Positions 3,029-63,847 of a stretch of DNA of 64,000 nucleotides are shown here, piece by piece; position 1 is the stretch's first letter, and each line of letters opens with the position of its first letter. Location of the stretch: positions 1 through 64,000 of IMG/VR virus record IMGVR_UViG_3300032227_000318. One strand, given 5' to 3'. A model generated the notes under the pieces. It was not told the DNA's origin. It saw nothing but the letters and a program-made list of their open reading frames with translations, and ran no database searches. The position numbers and the translations under genes were made by a program. The DNA is from a virus (Duplodnaviria > Caudoviricetes).

Positions 3029-4066
3029 TTATGCGTCAACATATCGAATAACAACTAAACCTGAACCTGAGACTGTAAGTGTATCGCCAAATAATCCAAC
3101 ACCGACACCAGCAATATAGTCTATGTCAGTTGTGTTTGGAGGATTTACATTTGAGGTTCTTGTTCCAGTTGTTCCTATTGTATTTACAGGTGTTAATATA
3201 CTAGTGTTAGCTCCGCCAGTATAACTAGAACCGCCGCCACCACCGTGGCCACCGCTGTTGCTTCCGTCACCGCCGTTACCACCACCGCCACCGCCGTAGT
3301 AACCAGCACCGCCGCCGCCGCCGCCAGCGTGATCGCTTTGATAGACAGAACCATCACCGCCTTGACCATATTCTGAACCTAATACAGCACTTGCGCCATT
3401 ATCACCTCTGCCACTTCCGTCTGCACCACCATCACCACCTTTAAGATAACTACCTGACTGACCATTTGATGTATCACCATTACCTCCAGATCCACCTGCA
3501 CTTTGAGTGCCACCGCCACCAGCGTTCAAACCGCCAGTACCGGGGTTCCCGTCTTCTCCTCCTGCGCCAGCTGTTGTGCCACCTCCGGCGCCACCAAGAC
3601 CTCCAGAAGTAGCCCTGCCACCACCGCCGCCTCCGCCGCCGCCAGCGATTAGAAGTGGTGTTGTGCTTCTAAAGATGCCAGCCCATGAACCGCCGCCGCC
3701 ACCTTGTCTGTCATTAGAACCTAGACCACCTGTAGGAACAAAGATGTTCAGCGTTTCGCCGGGAGTAACAGTTATAGCAGCTTTAACAAACCCGCCTGAT
3801 CCACCTCCGCCACCGGCCGAACTTTCAGTGCCGCCGCTTCCTCCACCTGCTCCCCAACATTTAGCAAATATAGTTGTTACACCGTTTGGTATAACCAATG
3901 TTGTGGCACCTGTTGTAGAGAAAACAACTTTATCTGGAGATGTAATTTTCCAAACACCACCTACATTTACCCAAGAAGACGGAACTGATTTCCAAACACC
4001 ACCAACGTTTACATATTCACTTGGAACGGTTTTCCAAACACCACCTACATTAACATACTTTGTCAT
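3029..4066 (-). CDS. Glycine-rich fibre-tip adhesin / receptor-binding protein (gp38-like architecture)
   Basis: Three N-terminal VNVGGVWK repeats, then many GGGG runs ending GSGLVVIRY; lies downstream of fibre and chaperone. Confidence 0.65.
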   Translation of the reverse strand: MTKYVNVGGVWKTVPSEYVNVGGVWKSVPSSWVNVGGVWKITSPDKVVFSTTGATTLVIPNGVTTIFAKCWGAGGGSGGTESSAGGGGGSGGFVKAAITVTPGETLNIFVPTGGLGSNDRQGGGGGSWAGIFRSTTPLLIAGGGGGGGGGRATSGGLGGAGGGTTAGAGGEDGNPGTGGLNAGGGGTQSAGGSGGNGDTSNGQSGSYLKGGDGGADGSGRGDNGASAVLGSEYGQGGDGSVYQSDHAGGGGGGAGYYGGGGGGNGGDGSNSGGHGGGGGSSYTGGANTSILTPVNTIGTTGTRTSNVNPPNTTDIDYIAGVGVGLFGDTLTVSGSGLVVIRYVDA

Positions 4067-4754: not shown

Positions 4755-7700
4755 TTATGCTGTATATTGTAGCCAAATATCACCGGCTGCGCCTCCAGTT
4801 GGCGATCCTGATGTCGTGATCATTATAGAACGGTATGCATTGTTTGCTACGGTACCGCCATATGTGCCAGCTACGGCAAGCGAACTCAATCCGCTGATGG
4901 AACCACCGGTGATTGATACTGAACTTGAAGATTGAGTTCCTAATGTGCCAATTGTATTTGCTTTAGCGAATGCAGCAGTACCTACAGTGTTCGCACCAGT
5001 ACCTACAGCCGTGTTAGCTCCTGCTATTGTAGCAGAAGCAAAGTTATTGGCTGCTGTACCAACGGCTGTGTTTGCACCTGATAGAGTTGCTAAGAGATAC
5101 GTATTAGCTCCTGTACCAACGGCTGTGTTTGCACCTGATAGAGTTGCTAAGAGATACGTATTAGCTCCTGTACCAACGGCTGTATTGGATCCATTTTGTA
5201 CGGTAATCATAAAAGCATTAGCACCAGCGGCGGCTGCTGTAGCAAAAGCATTAGCTCCTGTACCTACTGCTGTATTGGCTCCAGATAAGGTTGCTAAGAG
5301 ATACGTATTAGCTCCTGTACCAACGGCTGTATTGGCACCTGCTAGAGTTGTTAGTAGATAGGTGTTTGCTCCTGTACCTACAGCGGTATTTGCACCGGCA
5401 ATTGTGGTTAACAAGTAAGTATTTGAACCATTCTGTACCGCAATCATAAAAGCATTGGCGCCTGCTGTGGCGGCTGTAGCAAAAGCATTAGCACCAGTAC
5501 CAACCGCTGTATTAGCCCCAGCAATTGTAGCCAACAGGTAAGTATTAGCACCAGTACCTACGGCGGTATTTGCGCCAGCTATGGTTGCTAATAGATAGGT
5601 GTTGGCTCCAGTACCTATAGCCGTGTTAGCGCCATTCTGTACAGCAATCATAAAAGCGTTAGCGCCTGCTGTAGCTGCGGTAGAGTATGCGTTCGCGCCT
5701 GTGCCTACGTCCGTGTTAGCGCCTGCTACTGTAGCAGAAGTAAATGCGTTAGCACCTATACCTGTATTGAAAGCAAGAACGTTAGCTGCGTTAGCCTTAT
5801 CAAATGCAAAGTCATTTACCCATAGAGGAGGAGAACTGCTTCCATTTGATTGAAGCATTTGGCCTGCGGTACCAAAGTTAGCACCTCCAATACCTACAGC
5901 ACCAAATCTGTTGATACGAAGCTTTTCTGTCGATTCTCTAGAACCGATAGCAGTACCAAACATAAGTGTGGCGCCAGCGTTAGCTTGTTCATTTACAGCG
6001 TATACAAATGCTCTTGATCTTTCATCATCAGTCAAATCAGAATCATTAGAAGCAAATTCGATCATACCAATTGGTTGACCAGGATTTACAGTTGTATCTG
6101 TACCTGTAATTCTGAAAGTATTATTATGCATATTGAATGCATAGATCGTTGTTGAAGTCACAGTTGCTTGTGATGCTGTTAGGTTATATGTGCCTAGACC
6201 ACCAGTACCACCAAAGTATTCTTTAACGTAAGTGCCGCCAAGTACATTTAATCCTTCGTCAGTTACATAGTGACCAACGTTGATCTGACCAGAAACAACA
6301 GAACTGATTGTTAGAACATTTCCTGAGATAGAACCAGTACCTACGAATACTTCACTTGAACCGCCTGAAATTTCTAGTAGTTTAGCTGGTGTTGTAGTAC
6401 CAATACCAACAAAACCGTTGGCATCAATGACCAATCTAGATGCAGCAGCCGTGCTGAAACCAACTGTATTTGCACCAACGCGATACATGCCTGTGAAATT
6501 ATCAGTTGTCCATGAATATGCAGGTCTCAGTGCAGTGCCAGTGCTTACAGAATAGAATCCAGAAGTAGTATTAACATAAGCATTTGCAAGTAGAGAGCCG
6601 TTTAATGTTACTGTGGTATTTGGTAATGCAGCATTAGCTACAATAGAAGCTGCTAGTGTAGCAATATTTACAGTATTAGCAAATCCAAATGCGCTCTGTG
6701 CTACAGACAAAGCTAATGCTGGTGTATTATTACTTACAGCAAGTGAAGCTAGGTCAAGAGCTGTCTTAGCTAAAACATTAGCATAGTTTGCTGTTACGTT
6801 GGCTGTAAATGCTAAAAAGTTAGCTGCATTAGCTTTATCAAAAGTAATACCATTGTTAAGATTAGCTGTAGTTACTGCACCACCAACTTGAAATGCTAAG
6901 ATATTGGCGGAGTTAGCTTTATCATAACCACCGGCGGCTACAGTGGCGGTTTGACTAGCAGTGAAAGCAAGAACGTTAGCAGCATTAGCCTTATCAAATG
7001 CAGTACCTGCTGCTGTCGCGGCAAAAGAATTTGCGCCTGCACCAATTGCTGTATTTGAACCATTTTGTACGGTAATCATAAAAGCGTTAGCGCCTGCACC
7101 GACTGCTGTATTAGCTCCTGCTATGGTGGCTATGGCAAAATTGTTGGCCGCAGTACCAACAGCCGTGTTTGCGCCCGCTATAGTTGCTGAAGTGAAAGCA
7201 TTAGCGCCTGCACCGACTGCTGTGTTTGCGCCAGTTAAAGTTGCTAGAAGATATGTGTTTGCACCTGTACCTACTGCTGTATTGGCTCCAGATAAGGTTG
7301 TTAATAGGTAAGTATTAGCTCCTGTGCCAACCGCTGTATTAGCTCCTGATATGGTTGCTGAAGTGAAAGCATTAGCGCCTCCGCCAACTGCTGTGTTTGC
7401 ACCAGCAATTGTTGCTGAAGTGAAAGCATTGGCTCCAGTACCAACGGCTGTGTTGGCGCCATTCTGTACTACGATCATAAAGGCATTGGCACCAGCTGCG
7501 GCGGCCGTAGCATAAGCATTAGCACCGATACCGGTATTGAAAGCAAGTAAGTTAGCAGTATTTGCTCTATCAAATGCGGCGGCTGCATTAGAAGAAACAG
7601 TTGTGACTGTGTTTGAAAGTAGATTTACTGAAAGGGCTGAAGCTAAATTAAATGATGCTGTATCAGAAGTTACTGTAGAAACATTTAACTGGAAATAGAT

Positions 7701-20055: not shown

Positions 20056-20691
20056 TTAACCTCTGCACATATTGTCGTCACTTAAAGTGGCAACATTAAA
20101 TTTATTGTGTTTTTTGCCTTTGTTGTTTTGGCCCATTTTTTTACCTACAATTTTCATATTTTCTAATGCTTGACCTGTTCGTTTTTTACCTGTATTAGAA
20201 GCAACTCTCTTTTCAATTGATTCTGGACTTTGTTTTCTTCCTAACAGTTTCATTCTTTGTTTTTCTATACTTTCTAGGCTTCTTTTACGGCCTTTTAAAG
20301 AATTACTTATTTTTTGTCTTTCTTCTATTGTTTTATGATCACCTAAACGATTTTTATTACCTTTTGCCTTTTGAATAACAACATTTCTTTTATAGCTATC
20401 TGTTGACCAATGACCAAAATGGTGATTGTTTAGGTTATAATATCGGTCACCAAGTTCTTCATTTTTGATCTTAGATAACCATTTGTGTTCTTCTTCTAAT
20501 AAATCTTTCCTTGTAGTATAGATTCTACTTAATATTCTTCTTTTAAAATCTTGAGGTCTATGTTTATATCCTTGTTTCATCCAAGTTGATGAACAAATAT
20601 AACCATCATTTTCTTTACCCCATCTACATCCAATATAGTATCGCTTATGTTTCTTGTCGTACCATAGATAAACAAATCCATATTTTTCCAT
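20056..20691 (-). CDS. Free-standing GIY-YIG homing endonuclease (Seg-like) with NUMOD3-like repeats
   Basis: GFVY...YYIG...Y..SS, YYN, then repeated K.S.ESIEK motifs; inserted between gp25 and gp6. Confidence 0.85.
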   Translation of the reverse strand: MEKYGFVYLWYDKKHKRYYIGCRWGKENDGYICSSTWMKQGYKHRPQDFKRRILSRIYTTRKDLLEEEHKWLSKIKNEELGDRYYNLNNHHFGHWSTDSYKRNVVIQKAKGNKNRLGDHKTIEERQKISNSLKGRKRSLESIEKQRMKLLGRKQSPESIEKRVASNTGKKRTGQALENMKIVGKKMGQNNKGKKHNKFNVATLSDDNMCRG

Positions 20692-24935: not shown

Positions 24936-26009
24936 TTAGAATCCTTGTAGAACACGAAGCTTGTGTGTAACTTCTGTTTCGCGGAATGCAAGCTGCATTC
25001 TGATCTGTGTTGGATAACCATCATGGAATGTAGACCATGTGCCGTTTGGTGAATATGAAACGTCTATCTGTGTTAGAGCGCAAGTGTTAATTCTAGGTAT
25101 TCTAAGATTTTCTTTACCTCTATAGAAGAATGTAATATCAAATTCTGCTGGTGGTATCCAGAAAAATGTAGATACACCACTACTCGCTCTAAGTTCTGGA
25201 GCCGCATGAAATCTCAATGTTCTGATAATCTGTCTCAGGTTGCGAGATTCATTGGCTGATGATGGAGCAAAGATAAAATCGAAGCGATGTTCACGTTGCA
25301 TAGTATTAGCATACAGAACTTCAACTTTTGGATTGATAGGAGAACCAAGTACTTTAGCAGCCTCAGATACTCCTGTTAGTGAATTGTTAATAAGTCCGAC
25401 GCCGCCTGCAAAAGCGGCCGCTCTACCAAACATAGCACCAATAGCCGCGCCTGCAAATGTCATAACTCCACCAGCAACAGCAGCACCAAACTTTGTCAAA
25501 CTGATATTCTCAAAATCGTGGGTGTCATTAAATGTCAATTCAGCATTTGGCATATAAAGTGCAATCGACTCTTGAATTCTTCTGGTAAAACGAGGCCTTG
25601 TGATATCACCTCTACTAGCAGAAGGGTTCAATACATCGACTTCTAAACTTATACCGCTCTCTTGACCTAGATTACCGCCTTCGTTGATAAATCTTTTATC
25701 TATATTAAATCTTAGCGCATCTGTCTTTGAAAGCTGATCTGGCGCTAAAGTAGATATCCGAGTACCATTAACAGTACTCATTTTAGAAGCTGTTTGTTGG
25801 TTAATGTTAATAACCATATAATGACCGTTATAGGTTTGTCCGCCAAGTTCTTCAGGGAATATTCTATAATTGAAGTCATAGTTTGGTTGAGTTAATGAAT
25901 TATCTCTCGGCAAATCATTAAAGATGCCGTCATTATCTAGTCCATTATCTGTATATGGTACAGTAGTATTAACATCTGGTCGCACTTCTGCGCTTGGCGG
26001 TACTGCCAT
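24936..26009 (-). CDS. gp48: Baseplate tail-tube cap gp48
   Basis: IALYMP, INPKVEVLY...R...FDF.FAP, C.LT.IDVSYSPNG, L.FRETE. Confidence 0.85.
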   Translation of the reverse strand: MAVPPSAEVRPDVNTTVPYTDNGLDNDGIFNDLPRDNSLTQPNYDFNYRIFPEELGGQTYNGHYMVININQQTASKMSTVNGTRISTLAPDQLSKTDALRFNIDKRFINEGGNLGQESGISLEVDVLNPSASRGDITRPRFTRRIQESIALYMPNAELTFNDTHDFENISLTKFGAAVAGGVMTFAGAAIGAMFGRAAAFAGGVGLINNSLTGVSEAAKVLGSPINPKVEVLYANTMQREHRFDFIFAPSSANESRNLRQIIRTLRFHAAPELRASSGVSTFFWIPPAEFDITFFYRGKENLRIPRINTCALTQIDVSYSPNGTWSTFHDGYPTQIRMQLAFRETEVTHKLRVLQGF

Positions 26010-26035: not shown

Positions 26036-26043
26036 TATTTATA
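26036..26043 (-). promoter_or_regulatory. T4-type late promoter TATAAATA for the gp48 baseplate operon
   Basis: Exact consensus just upstream of gp48. TAAATA cores also precede other genes (about 3025, 11345, 15850, 20712, 21140, 26561+, 32057+, 38366, 55759, 63876). Confidence 0.75.
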
Positions 26044-26483
26044 TGAAAACCTATAAAGGAAAGTTTAGTCCAAAGAATCCACAAAAGTATAAAGGTGACC
26101 CCACCAACATAGTCTATAGATCACTATGGGAACTTAAGGTCATGAAGTACTTAGATGGAAATAATAATATATTAGAGTGGAGTTCAGAAGAACTCGCTAT
26201 TCCATACGTATGCCCTACTGATAACCGATGGCACAGGTACTTTCCTGACTTCATAGTTAAAGCTAGAAAGCCTGATGGTTCAATTCAAACTATGATATTA
26301 GAAGTTAAACCTAAAGCACAAACAATAGAACCTAAAGTACAGAGTAAGAGAACTAGGAAGTATCTCACAGAGGTAATGACATGGGGCAAGAATCAGGCCA
26401 AATGGAAATCAGCTACTGAATACTGTGAAGAGAGGAAGTGGTTATTCAAGTTAATAACAGAGGATAATCTAGGTATCAAGTAG
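26043..26483 (+). CDS. gp4: Head completion protein gp4
   Basis: YKGKF.PKNP.KYKGDPTNIVYRSLWE...WSSEE...HRYFPDF...EVKP. Confidence 0.93.
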   Translation: MKTYKGKFSPKNPQKYKGDPTNIVYRSLWELKVMKYLDGNNNILEWSSEELAIPYVCPTDNRWHRYFPDFIVKARKPDGSIQTMILEVKPKAQTIEPKVQSKRTRKYLTEVMTWGKNQAKWKSATEYCEERKWLFKLITEDNLGIK

Positions 26484-26549
26484 GACCTTAAAGGTATTCA
26501 TTTGATACAGGACATAGCCTTTATAACATACTGTCAACCATCTGTCAAG
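26482..26549 (-). repeat. Copy A of duplicated sigma70-like promoter plus 45-nt conserved element (candidate ncRNA or origin)
   Basis: TTGACA-N17-TATAAAGGCTATGTCCTGTATCAAATGAATACCTTTAAGGTCCT; near-identical to 62024-62092. Confidence 0.75.
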
Positions 26550-26573
26550 TAAAAACAGTACATAAATAAGAAT

Positions 26574-27074
26574 ATGGCTAAAAAAGAAGAAAAAGAAGCA
26601 GTAGACTGGTTTATCGGTAAAGCTAGAACAGCAGCCGGTTACAGAAGAAACATTATCAATAACAGCGAAAGATCCAGAGATGGAACATTCGTTGGTAAGA
26701 TGTACTTCTTCTACTATGACCCAAAGCATAAAAAGAAGCTACCGATATATGATAAATTCCCTCTTGTGTTCCCTATTGAACCATATCCAGATGGTTTCTT
26801 AGGTCTGAACCTGCATTATCTAGATACCGGTCAAAGAACAGCACTTTTGAGAAAGTTAACTGATTATAGAACCAACAGCAGGTTTGATGAGAAGACCAGA
26901 CTTAGATTGTCTTATGATCTTCTATCAAGAACAAAAAGTTTAGCCAGTCTATCTAGACCGTGCATCAAGAGATACCTTTTTACCCAAGTCAGAAGCAAAT
27001 TTATAGAAATCACAGCAAATGAATGGGAAAATGCAATCGCTCTTCCAGTTCAAATGTTTGTAACCAAGAGTTAA
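26574..27074 (+). CDS. gp2: DNA end protector protein gp2
   Basis: GKMYFFYYDPKHK.KLP.YD.FPL...GFLGLNLHYL...CIKRYL. Confidence 0.93.
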   Translation: MAKKEEKEAVDWFIGKARTAAGYRRNIINNSERSRDGTFVGKMYFFYYDPKHKKKLPIYDKFPLVFPIEPYPDGFLGLNLHYLDTGQRTALLRKLTDYRTNSRFDEKTRLRLSYDLLSRTKSLASLSRPCIKRYLFTQVRSKFIEITANEWENAIALPVQMFVTKS

Positions 27075-28774: not shown

Positions 28775-31006
28775 ATGGCAATAGATCCAAAAGACCTAAC
28801 AATAGACTATAGAAAAATACAGTCAATGCCTTTCAGAGATCGAAAGGCTTTGGTGTACTCTAGCTTTGCTGATCAGGTCAATTCAGCACTAACTCCAAGC
28901 CAAAGAGCCAATTTATTCCCAAATTATTATGTAAAATCTGCTACTAGCGGCGCTACACCAGGCGCAGGTGGTGATCCAAACTTATCAAAAGCAGACTATC
29001 TGAATAGAGCAAGAAATGGTGGTGTTAGCGATTCTGATCTTAATAGGGTATCAGGAAGACCTGAAGATAGAGGTCCGCCCCAAATTACCGCTTCTGAGTT
29101 TCGTGCTGTAGAAAGTAATCCATTTTTAGCTGGATATGTTGATAAGACTAGACGGGTTGAAACGAGCAATAGTAAATTTGGTAGATTTTCACCTAGAGAA
29201 AGAGCAACATTAGATTTTATTTCTGCAAGAGAAGGTTCTAAAAATCCAGACATTATATTTGGTGATAGTGGCAATAAACCTGGTAGCGGAAGATATAGTC
29301 GTGCATTAGGTTTAGATAAGAGGCCTCTTTCAGACCATTCTATTGCAGAAGTTATAGCTCTACAAAAGAAGCTGACGGCTATAACAGGAGCAGACGGAGT
29401 TGCCGGTGGCGTTGGAACTTCTGCTGTCGGCACAGGTCAAATGATTAGAGGGACCTTAATTGGTAATCTTCGTTCTTTGGGTATACCTGAAGAAGATTGG
29501 GATAAGATTAAGTTTGATGAAACTCTACAGAATAGATTAACATTAGAGAATTTTAAAACGTCAGGTATCGGAGATCCAAATGGTGACCCGAGACAATGGA
29601 ATCATACAACGCTTGGTAGACAATATGAATCATTAGACACATCTAAAGGATTCAATGCTATGTCTGGTGATGAGATGTATTCTATTATCAAAGCATCATC
29701 AGAAAGACCTAAAGAGGTTGATGAACAAACAGCAACTCCAGATGCCATGGCTGTTGTAGATAAAGTGATGAGTGAAACTCCTTCTGCTGTAGAATTAAAA
29801 ATGTCTGCTGAGAATCTAGACATAAACTCTACACCTGAGTCGGCACTAGCATTCTTGAATAACAAAGAAAGAAATCCTGATGGTGCGAATCTTGGAGATG
29901 TAGATGCTAGACTTTTAGAATTGGCTGAGATGGGTATTCGTAAGTTTGAATCAGAAAATTCAAACTTTAAAGTTGAGATTTATGGTCCTAGTAGCGGAAA
30001 GAGGCAATCTTCAGTAACTCAGAACTCTCAGCACCTTGTAGGTAAAGCTCTAGACTTTGAGATATTTGAAGTTGATCCTAAGACCGGTCAGAAGACAGGA
30101 AAAAGATTACCTAATTTTAGAACACAAGCTGGTGCCGGTGAAGCTGGCGATGAATATCTAAATCTTCATCAAAACATTGAATTGGCTAGAATCTATAAGA
30201 AAGAAGTAATCAAAGATCAACGCTATGAGGGTGTTTATGGCAGAAGCGGTGCTCTGTTCGGCGGTGAATATGCTCTAGATACACAACATTATGATATTGG
30301 TGGTGCACCGGCAGCCGATGGTATTATGTCAGCATCTCAGCCAGGCGGAAGCATTTTTGGTGGATATAGTGAAGAGTATATGAGAAGATTCGGTGTTGAG
30401 TCTGCTGCAATGCCTATTCAACAAGATAAAGTAGTTGAACTAGCTAAAAGCACATATGGTCCAAAAGAAACAGAAACTGCTGTTGCTACTACTTCAAGCA
30501 CACCAACTTCTGCTGTTCCTGCTGTAACTACAGTCGCGCCCGCGCAGGGCGTTACTACATCAGGAGTGACAACTGCGGCTGCTCCACCAGCACCAGAAAG
30601 CACTAATTATCCTATCAAGACAATGGCTCAAGGCGGCATAATACCAAAGAGTGCTGATACTCAGATTGTACAGAGAAATATGTCCGGTGATATCATATCA
30701 GCAACTAAGGTTGGTGAAAATGAAAATGAGAGGATGAACATTGAACCGATATCAAAGATGAGTGCAGACGCATTAACTGTCGGTTCATATAATCCTGTTG
30801 AAGGAGGTATGAACGATTCTAAATCACAATCAGCACTAGAAGACAAGAAGGTTAGTATGAAAAGTCAGAGTGTAGCACAGCCAAGATTGAGCAGTGATCC
30901 GTACTCAAACATACAGGGTGATATTAAGCCAATGTCACCAACTGCAAGGGCTGCAATGATGGCCGCAAGAGACTTGTCAACTCAAAGACGAGGCTATTCA
31001 TTATAA
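28775..31006 (+). CDS. Virion-associated peptidoglycan hydrolase / possible tape-measure-hub protein (lysozyme-like plus M15 peptidase domains)
   Basis: LDFISAREGS...SAVGTGQMIRGTL (lysozyme-like) and SQHLVGKALDF...HYD (M15 Zn motif); follows gp26/gp51. Confidence 0.6.
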   Translation: MAIDPKDLTIDYRKIQSMPFRDRKALVYSSFADQVNSALTPSQRANLFPNYYVKSATSGATPGAGGDPNLSKADYLNRARNGGVSDSDLNRVSGRPEDRGPPQITASEFRAVESNPFLAGYVDKTRRVETSNSKFGRFSPRERATLDFISAREGSKNPDIIFGDSGNKPGSGRYSRALGLDKRPLSDHSIAEVIALQKKLTAITGADGVAGGVGTSAVGTGQMIRGTLIGNLRSLGIPEEDWDKIKFDETLQNRLTLENFKTSGIGDPNGDPRQWNHTTLGRQYESLDTSKGFNAMSGDEMYSIIKASSERPKEVDEQTATPDAMAVVDKVMSETPSAVELKMSAENLDINSTPESALAFLNNKERNPDGANLGDVDARLLELAEMGIRKFESENSNFKVEIYGPSSGKRQSSVTQNSQHLVGKALDFEIFEVDPKTGQKTGKRLPNFRTQAGAGEAGDEYLNLHQNIELARIYKKEVIKDQRYEGVYGRSGALFGGEYALDTQHYDIGGAPAADGIMSASQPGGSIFGGYSEEYMRRFGVESAAMPIQQDKVVELAKSTYGPKETETAVATTSSTPTSAVPAVTTVAPAQGVTTSGVTTAAAPPAPESTNYPIKTMAQGGIIPKSADTQIVQRNMSGDIISATKVGENENERMNIEPISKMSADALTVGSYNPVEGGMNDSKSQSALEDKKVSMKSQSVAQPRLSSDPYSNIQGDIKPMSPTARAAMMAARDLSTQRRGYSL

Positions 31007-33364: not shown

Positions 33365-33390
33365 TTCAATCTCTTTACCATTATCATAAT

Positions 33391-33419
33391 ATTATACATG
33401 ACTCACATAATAAAGTCAA
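33391..33419 (-). promoter_or_regulatory. Sigma70-like promoter for gp33-gp59
   Basis: TTGACT-N17-TATAAT. Confidence 0.75.
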
Positions 33420-33447
33420 GGAGAAGCTTTCGCCTCTCCTATCATTA

Positions 33448-42015: not shown

Positions 42016-42235
42016 TAGCGCGGAGCTCCTCTTTAGTGGACGAAGGAATAGCGGCTTCATACATTGCAGCCAGACGGATGCAGGAAGCCATGCGGATGAG
42101 ATTGCCAGACTTGGCGTGCTTTACTGCGGTAAGCAGGAAGTCGGCTGCGAGACGGACTTCCACATCTTTGTGCTTTTCAATCGACTCAGCAATCTTAACC
42201 TTGCGGGACATTGGAACCTTTCTTGTCACTGTCAT
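42008..42235 (-). CDS. Hypothetical early protein (leaderless ATG 42235 or internal MSRKVK start)
   Basis: First gene after a repeated promoter. Confidence 0.6.
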   Translation of the reverse strand: MTVTRKVPMSRKVKIAESIEKHKDVEVRLAADFLLTAVKHAKSGNLIRMASCIRLAAMYEAAIPSSTKEELRANG

Positions 42236-42297
42236 ATACTGGATATAGTGATTGCAAGTTGGTATTTCAAGCTTTATGGTACGCATATCTCGTATGC
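42236..42297 (-). promoter_or_regulatory. Repeated early promoter, copy 1
   Basis: TTGAAA-N17-TATATC with upstream GCATA-N5-TATGC. Confidence 0.8.
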
Positions 42298-42374
42298 ATC
42301 GGACGCATGGGTCCAATAAAGAAACGATACAACTTGCGGTAGACATTGCTGAACAGGGGGAGCGTCATCATCAT
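42267..42374 (-). CDS. Leaderless micropeptide MMMTLPLFSNVYRKLYRFFIGPMRPMHTRYAYHKA
   Basis: ATG at predicted +1; LYRFFIGP shared with 52051..52134 through synonymous codons. Confidence 0.7.
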   Translation of the reverse strand: MMMTLPLFSNVYRKLYRFFIGPMRPMHTRYAYHKA

Positions 42375-42435
42375 ACTATGGATATAGTGATGCGACCCTC
42401 GTTTTTCAAGAAAGGGTCGCGCATACCAGCTATGC
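42375..42435 (-). promoter_or_regulatory. Repeated early promoter, copy 2
   Basis: TTGAAA-N17-TATATC with upstream GCATA-N5-TATGC. Confidence 0.8.
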
Positions 42436-51427: not shown

Positions 51428-51735
51428 TACATGCTCCAGTAAGATTCAGACGAGGGCGAACAGTAGTTCGGCGTATTGATACGCTCAAAGAACGGCTTCC
51501 CGCTCATGAGGTTGGTACGCTGGACAATCTGTTCAATGTTATCGTGGAAGTTTTGTTCGTCAGTCACAGCCAGCTGGTCGGCGGTGTACTTCCCAGACTT
51601 GATCAGGCGCGACATGTGAGACTTGGCCGCAGCGATGGAGTCAAAGATGGGTGCGTCATACTTGGCCTTTTTTCCAGCATAGCGGGTGGTGGCAATCTCA
51701 AAAACGACGAAGGTCATGGTGTCTCTCTTTCTCAT
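51427..51735 (-). CDS. Hypothetical early protein (NLMSGK...NTP..CSPSSESYWSM family)
   Basis: First gene after repeated promoter copy 4. Confidence 0.75.
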   Translation of the reverse strand: MRKRDTMTFVVFEIATTRYAGKKAKYDAPIFDSIAAAKSHMSRLIKSGKYTADQLAVTDEQNFHDNIEQIVQRTNLMSGKPFFERINTPNYCSPSSESYWSM

Positions 51736-51796
51736 ATACTGGATATAGTGATTGCAAGTCTGATTTTCAATGTCTAAGGACGCTGGACTGCTATGC
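51736..51796 (-). promoter_or_regulatory. Repeated early promoter, copy 4
   Basis: TTGAAA-N17-TATATC; 28-nt identity with copy 1; degenerate upstream palindrome. Confidence 0.8.
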
Positions 51797-52051: not shown

Positions 52052-52134
52052 TAAGACACCTTATAGTTGTAACGGGGAAGGGGGCCGATGAAGAATCGGT
52101 AGAGGGCGCGGAGGAAGGGGATCTTGGTCATCAT
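52051..52134 (-). CDS. Leaderless micropeptide MMTKIPFLRALYRFFIGPLPRYNYKVS
   Basis: ATG at predicted +1; TAATG coupling to the HTH gene; paralog of 42267..42374. Confidence 0.7.
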   Translation of the reverse strand: MMTKIPFLRALYRFFIGPLPRYNYKVS

Positions 52135-52195
52135 ATACTGGATATAGTGATGCAACCCTCTGGTTTCAACTGAGGAAATAGAATACCAGCCATAC
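52135..52195 (-). promoter_or_regulatory. Repeated early promoter, copy 5
   Basis: TTGAAA-N17-TATATC; spacer resembles copy 2. Confidence 0.8.
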
Positions 52196-61293: not shown

Positions 61294-62016
61294 TTATCTG
61301 CTTTTGCCGTATCGCACGTACATACACGCGCCTGTGCGCTCGTCTTCTATGATAATAGGATCTTTACACTTCTTTGCATACTCTCTTAGGTCATGATACG
61401 CACTATCTTCATCAAGATATTTACGCCAATGCTTTCTACTCTTCTTTGCTTCTCTTAATGCATTGAATGTGGCCGATGAAACAATGAATGTTGGTTTTCC
61501 TGCAAATTTACCTCTACGCGCCATCGGCATCATTTGTGCTGATCTGCCAGGTTCTCCGTTTGGCCCTACGCCAAGAGCAGCTATATTGCCTCCGCCTGCG
61601 GCATTCGCAGGAGCTTCTTCTTCCATTCCTACTGCTTTTCTGGCTAGTCCTAGATAGTATGGAACTTTAGATGCTTTTTCGCCAGCAGATAATGCTGCAC
61701 CTACAGCAGGTATACTAGACGCAGCACCATACGCGAGTACAGGACCAACCAACTCACCAGCAGCAGCAGCCTGCTGGTGTTCTTTCTCGTCATGGTCAAG
61801 CTTTTCTTTTTCTTGGTCAAGTTCTCTTTTGTATGTTGTGCCTTTGCCATATCCTAATGCACTTGCTGTATTCTTTGCTGCATAATCTATACCCGCTCTT
61901 GCGTACTTGTATCCGCCAAGTGTGGCAGTGTCAGCGGCTTTTCTACCAAATGCTGATATACTGTCTAACCAACCTTCGCCTTCCTGCATTTTTTTTCTTA
62001 CAATAATTTTCTTCAT
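61294..62016 (-). CDS. Hypothetical virion protein
   Basis: EEAPANAAGGGNIA and PIIIEDERTG C-terminal region conserved in T4-like phages. Confidence 0.65.
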   Translation of the reverse strand: MKKIIVRKKMQEGEGWLDSISAFGRKAADTATLGGYKYARAGIDYAAKNTASALGYGKGTTYKRELDQEKEKLDHDEKEHQQAAAAGELVGPVLAYGAASSIPAVGAALSAGEKASKVPYYLGLARKAVGMEEEAPANAAGGGNIAALGVGPNGEPGRSAQMMPMARRGKFAGKPTFIVSSATFNALREAKKSRKHWRKYLDEDSAYHDLREYAKKCKDPIIIEDERTGACMYVRYGKSR

Positions 62017-62023
62017 CTTTTCT

Positions 62024-62092
62024 CTTGACTTTCTATTGACACGGGTGTATAAAGGCTATGCCCTGTAGCAAATGAATACCTTTAAAGGTCCT
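62024..62092 (+). repeat. Copy B of duplicated sigma70-like promoter plus 45-nt conserved element
   Basis: TTGACT-N17-TATAAAGGCTATGCCCTGTAGCAAATGAATACCTTTAAAGGTCCT. Confidence 0.75.
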
Positions 62093-62468
62093 TAAGTTTC
62101 TTACCAATGATAACATCAATACCGATATCTGAAGAGTTTATGTATTTTCCTCTAATACCATTGATATACTTAGGCATGAAGTTTAGAAACAGAAGAAACG
62201 TCTTCAATATCATATAATCACCAACATCCAGTTTATAGAATAGCATTCTAACCGCAGGTTCTACTCCAAAAACATTGGAGAGAATGATAATATGGTTTAG
62301 TATCAATCTCTCCTTTAGTTCTCCGGTATCTTTATATCGATTAATCAATCTTTTGACATATTTAATTCTCTTCAAGTCTTCTTCAAATTCGGATACGATA
62401 GCATTAGGTTTATCGTAGGCCTTCATTGCATAAAGCATAAAGTTATCATCATTTAAATTGTTGACCAT
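62082..62468 (-). CDS. Conserved T4-like hypothetical protein
   Basis: NF.LYAMKAYD.P.....EF.EDLKRIKY.KRL..RY...GELKERLILNHII.L.NVFG. Confidence 0.8.
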   Translation of the reverse strand: MVNNLNDDNFMLYAMKAYDKPNAIVSEFEEDLKRIKYVKRLINRYKDTGELKERLILNHIIILSNVFGVEPAVRMLFYKLDVGDYMILKTFLLFLNFMPKYINGIRGKYINSSDIGIDVIIGKKLKDL

Positions 62469-63247: not shown

Positions 63248-63847
63248 TTAAACACCAGTGAAGTATACGTTATCTCTTGGATCGTCACCAGTTATTGAAC
63301 CCATAGCTACGAGTGTTTCGTAGTTTAGACGACCAGCACGACCGCCAAGAGTTATTGATAGACTTGGCCAAAGTGTATTTGAACCATTTGTTCTAACGTT
63401 AAGACTTGAGACGGCAGAGAATCCAGAACCACCATTGTTAATGGTAATGCTGTTGATAGTATTCAATGTTGAGTTGGATGAGAACGACTGTAGAGTGTTC
63501 TGTGAGTTGGCAATAGTGAACGAAGCATTAAAGCCTGCACCTTGTGCCAATACGCTTGAATCTGTAATAAGCAGAAAACCGGCGGCATTGATACCTGTAC
63601 CACCATTGACAATATCAATACGTGTTACTGGGCCTGTACCGACCTTCTGGCTCTGCCAGCCGCCGTGTGGTCCATGAACTGCATTGTTATTCATTTCGTT
63701 AGCTGACACACCAAATACGTTGCCATAATATGCATTGGTGTTAGCCGCTGAACCATTGATTGTTGAGCTAGACGAAACATTTGTAGTGTTAGCAAATAGT
63801 GGCTTTTGATAGCCGTTTGCTGTATCTTGATTTCCCCATAGAGGCAT
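63248..63847 (-). CDS. Virion structural protein (MPLWG...GRAGR..YETLVAM family)
   Basis: AGGAG RBS and upstream ATAAATA late promoter. Confidence 0.75.
   Translation of the reverse strand: MPLWGNQDTANGYQKPLFANTTNVSSSSTINGSAANTNAYYGNVFGVSANEMNNNAVHGPHGGWQSQKVGTGPVTRIDIVNGGTGINAAGFLLITDSSVLAQGAGFNASFTIANSQNTLQSFSSNSTLNTINSITINNGGSGFSAVSSLNVRTNGSNTLWPSLSITLGGRAGRLNYETLVAMGSITGDDPRDNVYFTGV

Follow-up and report, generated by a model that had tools for sequence, protein, structure and literature searches.

We analysed the first 64 kb (the window) of IMGVR_UViG_3300032227_000318, a 110,481-bp IMG/VR contig with an estimated completeness of 67% that represents an uncultured freshwater T4-like phage, a divergent T4-like myovirus. 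Two intergenic elements in the window are the subject of this study. Copy 1 fills the 90-bp spacer between the head completion gene gp4 and the DNA end protector gene gp2, both on the plus strand, and copy 2 occupies the 65-bp gap that separates a DUF7207/phrog_407 gene from an open reading frame (ORF) of 240 aa, both on the minus strand (Table 1). Since copy 1 reads on the minus strand between plus-strand genes and copy 2 on the plus strand between minus-strand genes, the two have the same antisense orientation relative to their neighbours. They are copies of a gene-less promoter cassette of 65–75 bp and of the host sigma-70 type, which occurs widely across an uncultured T4-like phage clade.

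The pattern TATAAAGGCTATGYCCTGTAKCAAATGAATACCTTTAA matched only at 26488–26525 (−) and 62048–62085 (+) and had 0 matches in 100 dinucleotide shuffles, which ruled out a chance repeat; a blastn search of the whole 110-kb contig also returned two copies only. The copies share 38 nt with 2 mismatches, and each can be written as TTGAC(A/T)-N5-TTGACA-N6-TATAAA-GGC-TATG-YCCTGTAKCAAATGAATACCTTTAA. The spacer between the upstream box and the −10 hexamer is 17 bp in both copies, and the second box occupies the identical position within it. From the −10 onwards the copies are near-identical, whereas their upstream halves have the hexamers alone in common (GATGG and GTATGT in copy 1 versus TTCTA and CGGGTG in copy 2). 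The pattern search and direct reading bore out the initial annotation, which had described two elements at these positions with 2 mismatches and 1 indel, each with TTGAC 17 nt before TATAAA and a second TTGACA equally placed in the spacer. Tandem boxes within an intergenic spacer were found only at these two sites of the contig. The idea that they are the general architecture of early promoters in this phage was ruled out, because the other early promoters of the contig have a single TTGACA-N17-TATAAT, some with a terminator-like hairpin in front.

Table 1. Positions of the two cassette copies, their parts and the neighbouring genes in the window.
Feature	Position	Strand	Basis or remark
Cassette copy 1 (site I, gp4–gp2)	26482..26549	−	Tandem −35 boxes, −10, conserved early transcribed region
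Copy 1 box 1, TTGACA (−35; 17-nt spacer to −10)	26543..26548	−	Direct reading
Copy 1 box 2, TTGACA, inside the spacer, 11 bp downstream of box 1	26532..26537	−	Tandem boxes invariant in family
Copy 1 −10 hexamer TATAAA	26520..26525	−	Sequence match
Copy 1 GGCTATG: discriminator with the inferred start at the G of TATG (7th base past −10)	26513..26519	−	Near-invariant GSTATG
Copy 1 TATG	26513..26516	−	Sequence
Copy 1 ATGAAT, ~+14	26496..26501	−	Family-conserved offset
Copy 1 imported 8 nt (TAGGACCT on +; AGGTCCTA on −), end of conversion tract	26482..26489	−	Alignment of orthologous sites
Cassette copy 2 (site III, DUF7207–240-aa ORF)	62024..62092	+	Sequence and family match
Copy 2 box 1, TTGACT	62025..62030	+	Sequence
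Copy 2 box 2, TTGACA	62036..62041	+	Sequence
Copy 2 −10 hexamer TATAAA	62048..62053	+	Sequence
Copy 2 GGCTATG, discriminator and inferred start site	62054..62060	+	Sequence
Copy 2 TATG	62057..62060	+	Sequence
Copy 2 ATGAAT	62072..62077	+	Sequence and family offset
gp48-like baseplate tail tube cap gene; first sense gene for copy 1 transcript, ~0.5 kb downstream	24936..26009	−	Profile match
gp4 head completion gene; copy 1 fires into its 3' end	26043..26483	+	phrog_218, E 1.3e-58
ATAAATA late-promoter motif for gp2, between cassette and gp2 start	26562..26568	+	Motif
gp2 DNA end protector gene; start 25 nt behind copy 1 box 1	26574..27074	+	phrog_429, E 8.9e-47
240-aa ORF, function unknown; start 8 nt behind copy 2 box 1	61294..62016	−	ORF call
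DUF7207/phrog_407 gene; stop and last codons inside conserved cassette end	62082..62468	−	phrog_407, E 3.7e-35; PF23837, E 4.2e-37

A scan of IMG/VR with the pattern TTGAC-N6-TTGAC-N7-TA-N5-GSTATG placed the cassette in at least 120 contigs of related phages. The listed scan matches, together with loci from junction comparisons, gave 107 distinct cassettes when read with a slightly relaxed pattern. Among the matches listed, to which the cassette counts below also refer, 82 were antisense between co-oriented genes, 17 were in sense orientation and 8 were unclear. Clustering of the proteins that flank antisense cassettes assigned 76 to three junctions, and all 76 were antisense: site I, gp4–gp2 (29 cassettes); site II, between a small ORF x and gp55, the gene for the late sigma factor (phrog_234, E 2.6e-52; 34 cassettes); and site III, between the DUF7207 gene and a variable gene (13 cassettes). 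We refer to the gene that is fired into as gene A and to the gene behind the cassette as gene B. In antisense cassettes the stop codon of gene A mostly lies 15–30 nt past TATG (range 8–43), and in most of them the start codon of gene B lies 7–25 nt upstream of the first box.

TTGAC and the tandem boxes are invariant in the family, giving each member a −35 close to TTGACA, as in a sigma-70 promoter. The −10 hexamers at the same place vary within TAnnnT (TATAAT, TATTAT or TATATT), and many members, both window copies among them, have TATAAA. The 17 sense members are ordinary promoters, with a Shine-Dalgarno (SD) sequence and an ATG 24–43 nt after TATG, and therefore support the promoter reading, though indirectly. 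The proposal that the elements are of promoter type, antisense to probable late genes and conserved in relatives was supported.

The cassette comes and goes at individual junctions. When the gp4-adjacent intergenic regions of relatives were examined, a recognisable cassette was kept in ~20 of 52 related IMG/VR gp4–gp2 loci, and in the remaining loci the stop codon of gp4 directly adjoins the gp2 late promoter ATAAATA or overlaps it. At the junction downstream of DUF7207 homologues, the cassette was present in loci L085–L090 and L103 and absent in L091–L102. Five long contigs carried 1–2 copies. The gp55 gene is missing from the 67%-complete contig studied here, and the phage may have a third copy at x–gp55.

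The gene order at site II is gp23, a 172-aa ORF, UvsY, UvsW, x, the cassette, gp55, gp47 and gp46. This looks like the oldest and most constant of the three sites, because variant promoters upstream of gp55 persist in genomes without the strict pattern. A variant tandem-box antisense promoter lies directly upstream of gp55 in three of four related complete or near-complete genomes that lack the strict pattern and in the complete genome G002 (4 of 5), and one of the four genomes with the variant promoter again carries CAATGAATATCTTTA. In the cultured Stenotrophomonas phage DLP6 (KU682439.2, ~20470–20578), the spacer that separates gp55 from the gene after uvsW holds an antisense TTTACA-N17-TATAAT next to a TTGACC. 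The strict pattern was absent from DLP6 and from five Kyanoviridae records (four cultured cyanophages and one single-cell-derived marine virus), and a limited literature search found nothing on tandem −35 antisense promoters beside gp55. In the cassette-bearing relative L107 (10222–10306 and 9657–9702, both on the minus strand), a clean hairpin terminator comes after gp23, with a CATAAATA late promoter behind it, and TTGACA-N17-TATACT precedes uvsY. Given this terminator and promoter, uvsY, uvsW, x, gp55, gp47 and gp46 of L107 may form one early operon broken only by the antisense cassette.

We found no cultured member of the cassette-bearing clade. A megablast search of the contig against cultured phages gave no near DNA match, gp4 is at most 63% identical to cyanophage proteins, and the baseplate proteins of the window are ~30% identical to their counterparts in Stenotrophomonas, Caulobacter and Sinorhizobium phages. 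The cassette itself, searched by blastn, returned only Klebsiella matches at chance level.

The likeness of the two window copies has a mainly recent cause. In the alignment of orthologous sites, AGGTCCTA stands between CCTTTA and the stop codon of gp4 in copy 1 and in its close relative L007, and these 8 nt are missing from other site I cassettes such as that of L042. At site III (copy 2 and L085) the same 8 nt are the last codons, K-D-L-stop, of the DUF7207 gene. Because copy 1 holds terminal codons of the DUF7207 gene that are absent from unconverted gp4–gp2 cassettes, the stretch from −10 to +45 in the site I copy must have been replaced by that of the site III copy, along with codons that flank it, and the resemblance mainly reflects this ectopic gene conversion. 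For this pair, the likeness is therefore no proof of selection on the transcript. The initial annotation had taken conservation past the −10 as a sign of selection. For the window pair this did not stand, as the 45-nt identity, imported 8 nt included, is mostly recent conversion; a weaker form of the claim survives family-wide, in GSTATG and in the ATGAAT motif at about +14. GSTATG is almost invariant across the family, and ATGA[AT]T lies 10–12 nt after TATG in 55 of the 76 antisense cassettes of sites I–III, otherwise divergent subtypes included. The background for this motif is 4.2% of 40-nt windows, and it stands at that offset in 4 of the 17 sense members.

Mosaic cassettes were also seen beyond the window. 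The early transcribed segment found at site II in L126 and L206 recurs in the site I cassette of L007, copy 2 and the L206 cassette have identical upstream halves, and the two copies in genome G002 share an unusual upstream half and differ downstream. On a gp2 tree, the presence of the site I cassette needs at least five gains or losses, two of them forced by well-supported branches. Neither a target-site duplication nor transposon ends were seen by eye when filled and empty sites were compared. That the elements are real promoter cassettes homogenised by conversion is, in our judgement, very probable.

These patterns bear on a first explanation of what the cassettes do, namely that they do nothing: a selfish or near-neutral mobile promoter cassette, of the type of the promoter-early stem-loop (PeSL) cassettes, would spread and homogenise among intergenic sites through the efficient homologous recombination of the phage, and its antisense copies would be functionless. 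Its presence or absence at one junction among close relatives, the repeated gains and losses on the gp2 tree, the mosaic halves across sites and genomes and the conversion tract with its dragged codons would all be expected of such an element, and the PeSLs of phages RB49 and phi1 do recombine and move genes (PMC2839356). However, a neutral element is not expected to be antisense in 76 of 76 cases at three fixed junctions, to keep its −35/spacer/−10 geometry intact across gp55 identities down to ~45%, or to keep ATGAAT at a fixed offset, and the 1–2 copies per genome lack a cargo gene, unlike PeSLs. We consider this explanation unlikely.

The comparison with PeSLs, described in the T4-type phages RB49 and phi1 (Arbiol et al. 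2010, PMC2839356), extends further. Both are short conserved cassettes with strong sigma-70-like promoters in intergenic spacers of T4-type phages, and in both cases recombination between copies reshapes genomes, which is seen here in the conversion tract and the mosaic halves. The stem-loop terminator or attenuator of PeSLs has no counterpart here, as the fold z-scores ranged from −0.07 to +1.41 and no terminator-like site was found in the cassettes. PeSLs point at a downstream gene and end in its SD sequence and start codon, whereas both window copies and 82 of the 107 cassettes are antisense. PeSLs are also numerous and lie in hyperplastic regions of orphan genes, whereas there are 2 cassettes in 110 kb here and 1–2 in other long contigs, beside the core genes gp4, gp2 and gp55. 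Judged by these features, the cassette is not a PeSL. A layout resembling that of a PeSL does occur elsewhere in the window, at 33365–33447, where a terminator hairpin is followed by TTGACT-N17-TATAAT; this is an ordinary early promoter in sense orientation. Another ordinary early promoter in sense orientation, with a perfect TTGACA-N17-TATAAT, lies at 105950–106167 of the contig.

We then considered the RNA. Folding of the window elements was no better than that of shuffles, RNAalifold gave 0 consensus pairs over the first 130 nt, both with 20 sequences of site I and with 12 of site III, no intrinsic terminator was found in the firing direction, and Rfam had no match at E ≤ 1. On the fold z-scores, RNAalifold and Rfam, a structured RNA and a known RNA family were rejected. 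The terminator or conserved structure by which a structured, terminated cis-antisense small RNA (sRNA) is recognised was not found in the cassettes. An undescribed sRNA family, one of the two readings offered in the initial annotation, thus fared poorly. The conserved 45 nt could still be the functional 5' part of an sRNA with targets in trans or in the 3' end of gene A, or could encode a tiny peptide (ATG-YCC-NNN-NNN-AWA-TGA or ATG-AAT-AMC-TTT...). Either would account for an early transcribed region that is conserved beyond promoter needs and common to the copies within one genome, and a 5-codon frame does start at the ATG of TATG in many members. In addition to the negative folding, terminator and Rfam results, the peptide frames are broken or length-shifted (ATG TAG in L137 and L145, longer in L022, L035 and L013), they have no SD sequence, the inferred start site lies inside the first ATG, and the third codon after ATGAAT varies freely. 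The two candidate mini-frames were rejected as not conserved, and an sRNA or a micropeptide, taken jointly, is improbable.

Antisense transcription in phage operons from a host-type promoter is known from the sar RNA of P22, which covers a ribosome-binding site, and from the 'anti-late RNA' of T4. CfrI of cyanophage S-PM2, in the form in which it is cited in PMC2984593, also represents antisense transcription within a phage operon from a host-type promoter. Judged by that citation, CfrI resembles sar in being a discrete RNA with defined ends, whereas neither a terminator-defined 3' end nor structure was found for the cassette RNA, which moreover would lead away from the ribosome-binding site of gene B.

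Downstream of sites II and III, every ORF within the available loci, which extend for up to 11 kb, is antisense. The RNA of site I would traverse ~0.45 kb of gp4 before entering the baseplate cluster in sense. The statement that neither copy has a plausible downstream gene holds for copy 2, where the called ORFs of at least 70 aa are all on the other strand to ~77.9 kb, and fails for copy 1, whose transcript would leave gp4 after ~0.5 kb of antisense and pass in sense into the baseplate cluster, which runs in the same direction. The statement that each copy fires into an oppositely oriented late gene is correct as to orientation; the lateness of the gene at 62082 is plausible through an ATAAATA late-promoter motif 34 nt upstream of the gene at 63248–63847, which heads the string of co-oriented genes near copy 2. 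By this motif, the genes around copy 2 are probably late.

The functional strand could instead be the sense strand of the flanking genes, with an intercistronic mRNA signal or a PhoB- or NtcA-type site that regulates gene B and with TTGACA as an incidental feature. On that strand the boxes become (C)TGTCAA-N4/5-(C)TGTCAA, a direct repeat with a period of 11 bp that lies immediately ahead of the gene B ribosome-binding site and resembles the Pho box, CTGTCAT-N4-CTGTCAT; TGTA-N9-TAC in the transcribed part is loosely like NtcA or CRP sites. Yet the tandem-box cassette would drive genes in the promoter orientation in 17 members, the 7–17 nt between the boxes and the start of gene B leave no space for a −10 and a leader, and the sense-strand RNA has no fold signal. 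A Pho box was rejected because the base that completes CTGTCAA is not conserved, and an NtcA site because its spacing is N9 and not the canonical N8. A sense or bidirectional promoter for gene B was rejected as well: CANNAT is found opposite TATTAT and TATATT −10s and not opposite the TATAAA of the window, and the weak sense sigma-70 match of copy 1 (TTGATA-N16-TAACAT) is its only one and is not conserved in copy 2. We regard a sense-strand function as very improbable.

A more serious alternative is that the cassettes act by transcriptional interference, insulation or as a source of anti-late RNA. Through its polymerases and its RNA, a strong early promoter placed head-on inside an operon would block or collide with read-through from gene A into gene B (gp55, gp2 or the variable gene), and could also silence uvsW, gp4 or the DUF7207 gene until host-type transcription fades. 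There is precedent in the anti-late RNA of T4 and in the convergent-promoter interference of phages 186 and lambda. The antisense orientation of all 76 cassettes at the three junctions fits this explanation, as does the position of box 1, mostly 7–25 nt from the start codon of gene B, so that a sense transcript cannot get to gene B without crossing the promoter. In L107, transcription from the sense promoter upstream of uvsY would continue over uvsW and x into gp55, counter to the cassette, and gp55 could be reached only by such transcripts. The late promoter that gp2 has downstream of the cassette and the genomes in which gp55 has a promoter of its own (type b) both fit an insulator followed by an own promoter. 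On the other side, both window copies sit in probable late operons that would be silent while an early promoter is active, with little but read-through to block; an intrinsic terminator would be a simpler insulator, and the phage has terminators elsewhere; the ATGAAT at +14 and the tandem boxes are left unexplained; and gp4–gp2 cassettes are often lost without replacement. The cassette also persists in genomes that give gp55 a sense promoter of its own, back-to-back with the cassette (14 of 16 such spacers scanned), and is therefore not there merely to gate gp55. Interference is a possible function short of a likely one, and a close rival, almost as likely as the role to which we now turn.

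By analogy with T4, we tentatively favour a function in replication origin priming, the other reading offered in the initial annotation, while holding it at less than even chances. Host RNA polymerase would fire from the cassettes early, before late transcription, and the product would be an unstructured non-coding RNA antisense to the neighbouring genes. This RNA would stay annealed behind the promoter as an R-loop and prime leading-strand DNA synthesis, and the cassettes would be replication origins of the T4 oriE/oriG type. As origins they would be recombination hot spots, which would account for the mosaic, converted copies. The picture of T4 origins suits, as an analogy, an early promoter that has no gene of its own, runs antisense to late genes, occurs in few copies and readily undergoes conversion. 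In T4, early synthesis starts in late-gene regions, and an R-loop origin has a pre-late promoter within a minimal origin of ~100 bp (PMC3016281); such a promoter is present in both window copies and in the family. A persistent R-loop and autonomous plasmid replication during infection are further marks of origins of this kind. For oriF and oriG, a promoter and an A+T-rich unwinding element are all that is needed (PMC3016281). The coincidence of T4 origins with recombination hot spots is the subject of a paper in the reference list of the same review (PMC3016281).

The likeness is closest to oriE and oriG (ori34). According to the T4 GenBank record, the primer RNA of oriE, inside late gene 5, is the complement of the gene 5 transcript, and that of oriG is opposite to the adjacent late gene 34; both are thus pre-late promoters inside late-gene regions, with RNA opposite to a late gene and no gene of their own, like the cassettes. 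The promoter of oriE is also of the early mode, T4 has few origins per genome, just as there are 1–2 cassettes here, and copy 1, like oriE, lies near the divergence point of gp4 and the baseplate genes and fires back toward it. The differences are that there is no sequence similarity, that the T4 origins lie at genes 5 and 34 and the window copies at gp4–gp2 and DUF7207, that oriG uses a MotA middle promoter, and that oriE has 12-nt iterons and the repEA and repEB genes, none of which were seen here. T4 origins also lack tandem −35 boxes and a conserved +14 motif, and the cassette is only a candidate for origin activity of its own.

Site II invites comparison with oriF (ori uvsY), although its x–gp55 junction is not in the contig of the window. 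The T4 record gives oriF as the uvsY transcript, in the (−) direction, toward the uvsW 3' end in its gene map. In both cases a promoter, whose transcript primes replication in T4, fires toward the 3' end of uvsW, and x–gp55 lies one or two small genes past uvsW, firing the same way. The oriF transcript is the sense uvsY mRNA, whereas the cassette RNA would be antisense, with uvsY on the far side of uvsW. It is conceivable, if somewhat doubtful, that the antisense promoter at x–gp55 pointing at uvsW is the ancestral transcription-primed origin of the clade, that the window copies are extra origins seeded by origin-associated conversion, and that box 2 and ATGAAT are origin-specific determinants.

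Several observations weigh against an origin. The gp4–gp2 cassettes have been gained and lost, which makes these copies dispensable. The strict pattern is absent from the four complete or near-complete genomes noted above, and in G007 no tandem-box antisense promoter was found upstream of gp55, only weak 9/12 sigma-70-like matches. The −10 TATAAA of both window copies has the A at position 2, lacks a T at position 6 and was missed by a consensus scanner, and the 17 sense members are, by their layout, ordinary gene promoters. An unwinding element is not evident: the family is A+T-rich after the start site only to a degree (about 72% over ~40 bp; 0.72–0.74 in the first ~25 bp and 0.67–0.71 in the next 20 bp, versus a background of 0.62; 0.62–0.72 versus 0.59 for the window copies), and this crude measure does not clearly mark oriF, oriG or oriE of T4 either. 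A compositional-skew shift accompanies some T4 origins (PMC3016281). The difference in GC skew at third codon positions (GC3 skew) across x–gp55 was −0.019 ± 0.076 (18 loci), that is, no shift, and skew in the window follows, by eye, the strand switches of the ORF map. Finally, the region downstream of the origin promoter in T4 is not sequence-specific (PMC3016281), so the origin model does not predict ATGAAT or the tandem −35 boxes.

Other features of the window are recorded here. A direct repeat family with four copies (42232–42279, 42371–42418, 51732–51779 and 52131–52178; TCATATACTGGATATAGTGAT...TTTCAA) shows, in reverse complement, tandem −35-like boxes CTTGAAA-N6-CTTGCAA followed by a TAT-rich stretch, in sense orientation relative to early genes. 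Periodic repeat arrays of 57 nt (19 codons) at 1–1415, 4951–5747 and 6990–7520 lie inside large minus-strand ORFs of the structural region, which probably encode repetitive fibre or collagen-like proteins, and GCC/GCG-rich runs (CCGCCGCC...) occur at 3224–3704. A 743-aa ORF at 28775–31006 (+) follows gp2 and the gp3-like and tail-tube-like genes; a tblastn search of 50,697 records of cultured phages found nothing similar to it at E ≤ 1e-5.

The conversion tract shows that a regulatory unit of 65 bp was copied between distant sites of one phage genome with adjoining codons carried along. Environmental T4-like phages are common in lakes and oceans, and a limited literature search found no reported replication origins for them; those of T4 itself have been mapped and have no common sequence motif to search for (PMC3016281). 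The cassettes would offer a sequence-defined, low-copy and clonable origin candidate at fixed junctions with oriE/oriG architecture. If they are origins, box 2 and ATGAAT, without a T4 counterpart, might hold the polymerase or nucleate the RNA:DNA hybrid. If they act by interference, they would be a conserved timing device directly before the gene for the master late sigma factor. Either role would help to explain how these phages order their infection programme.

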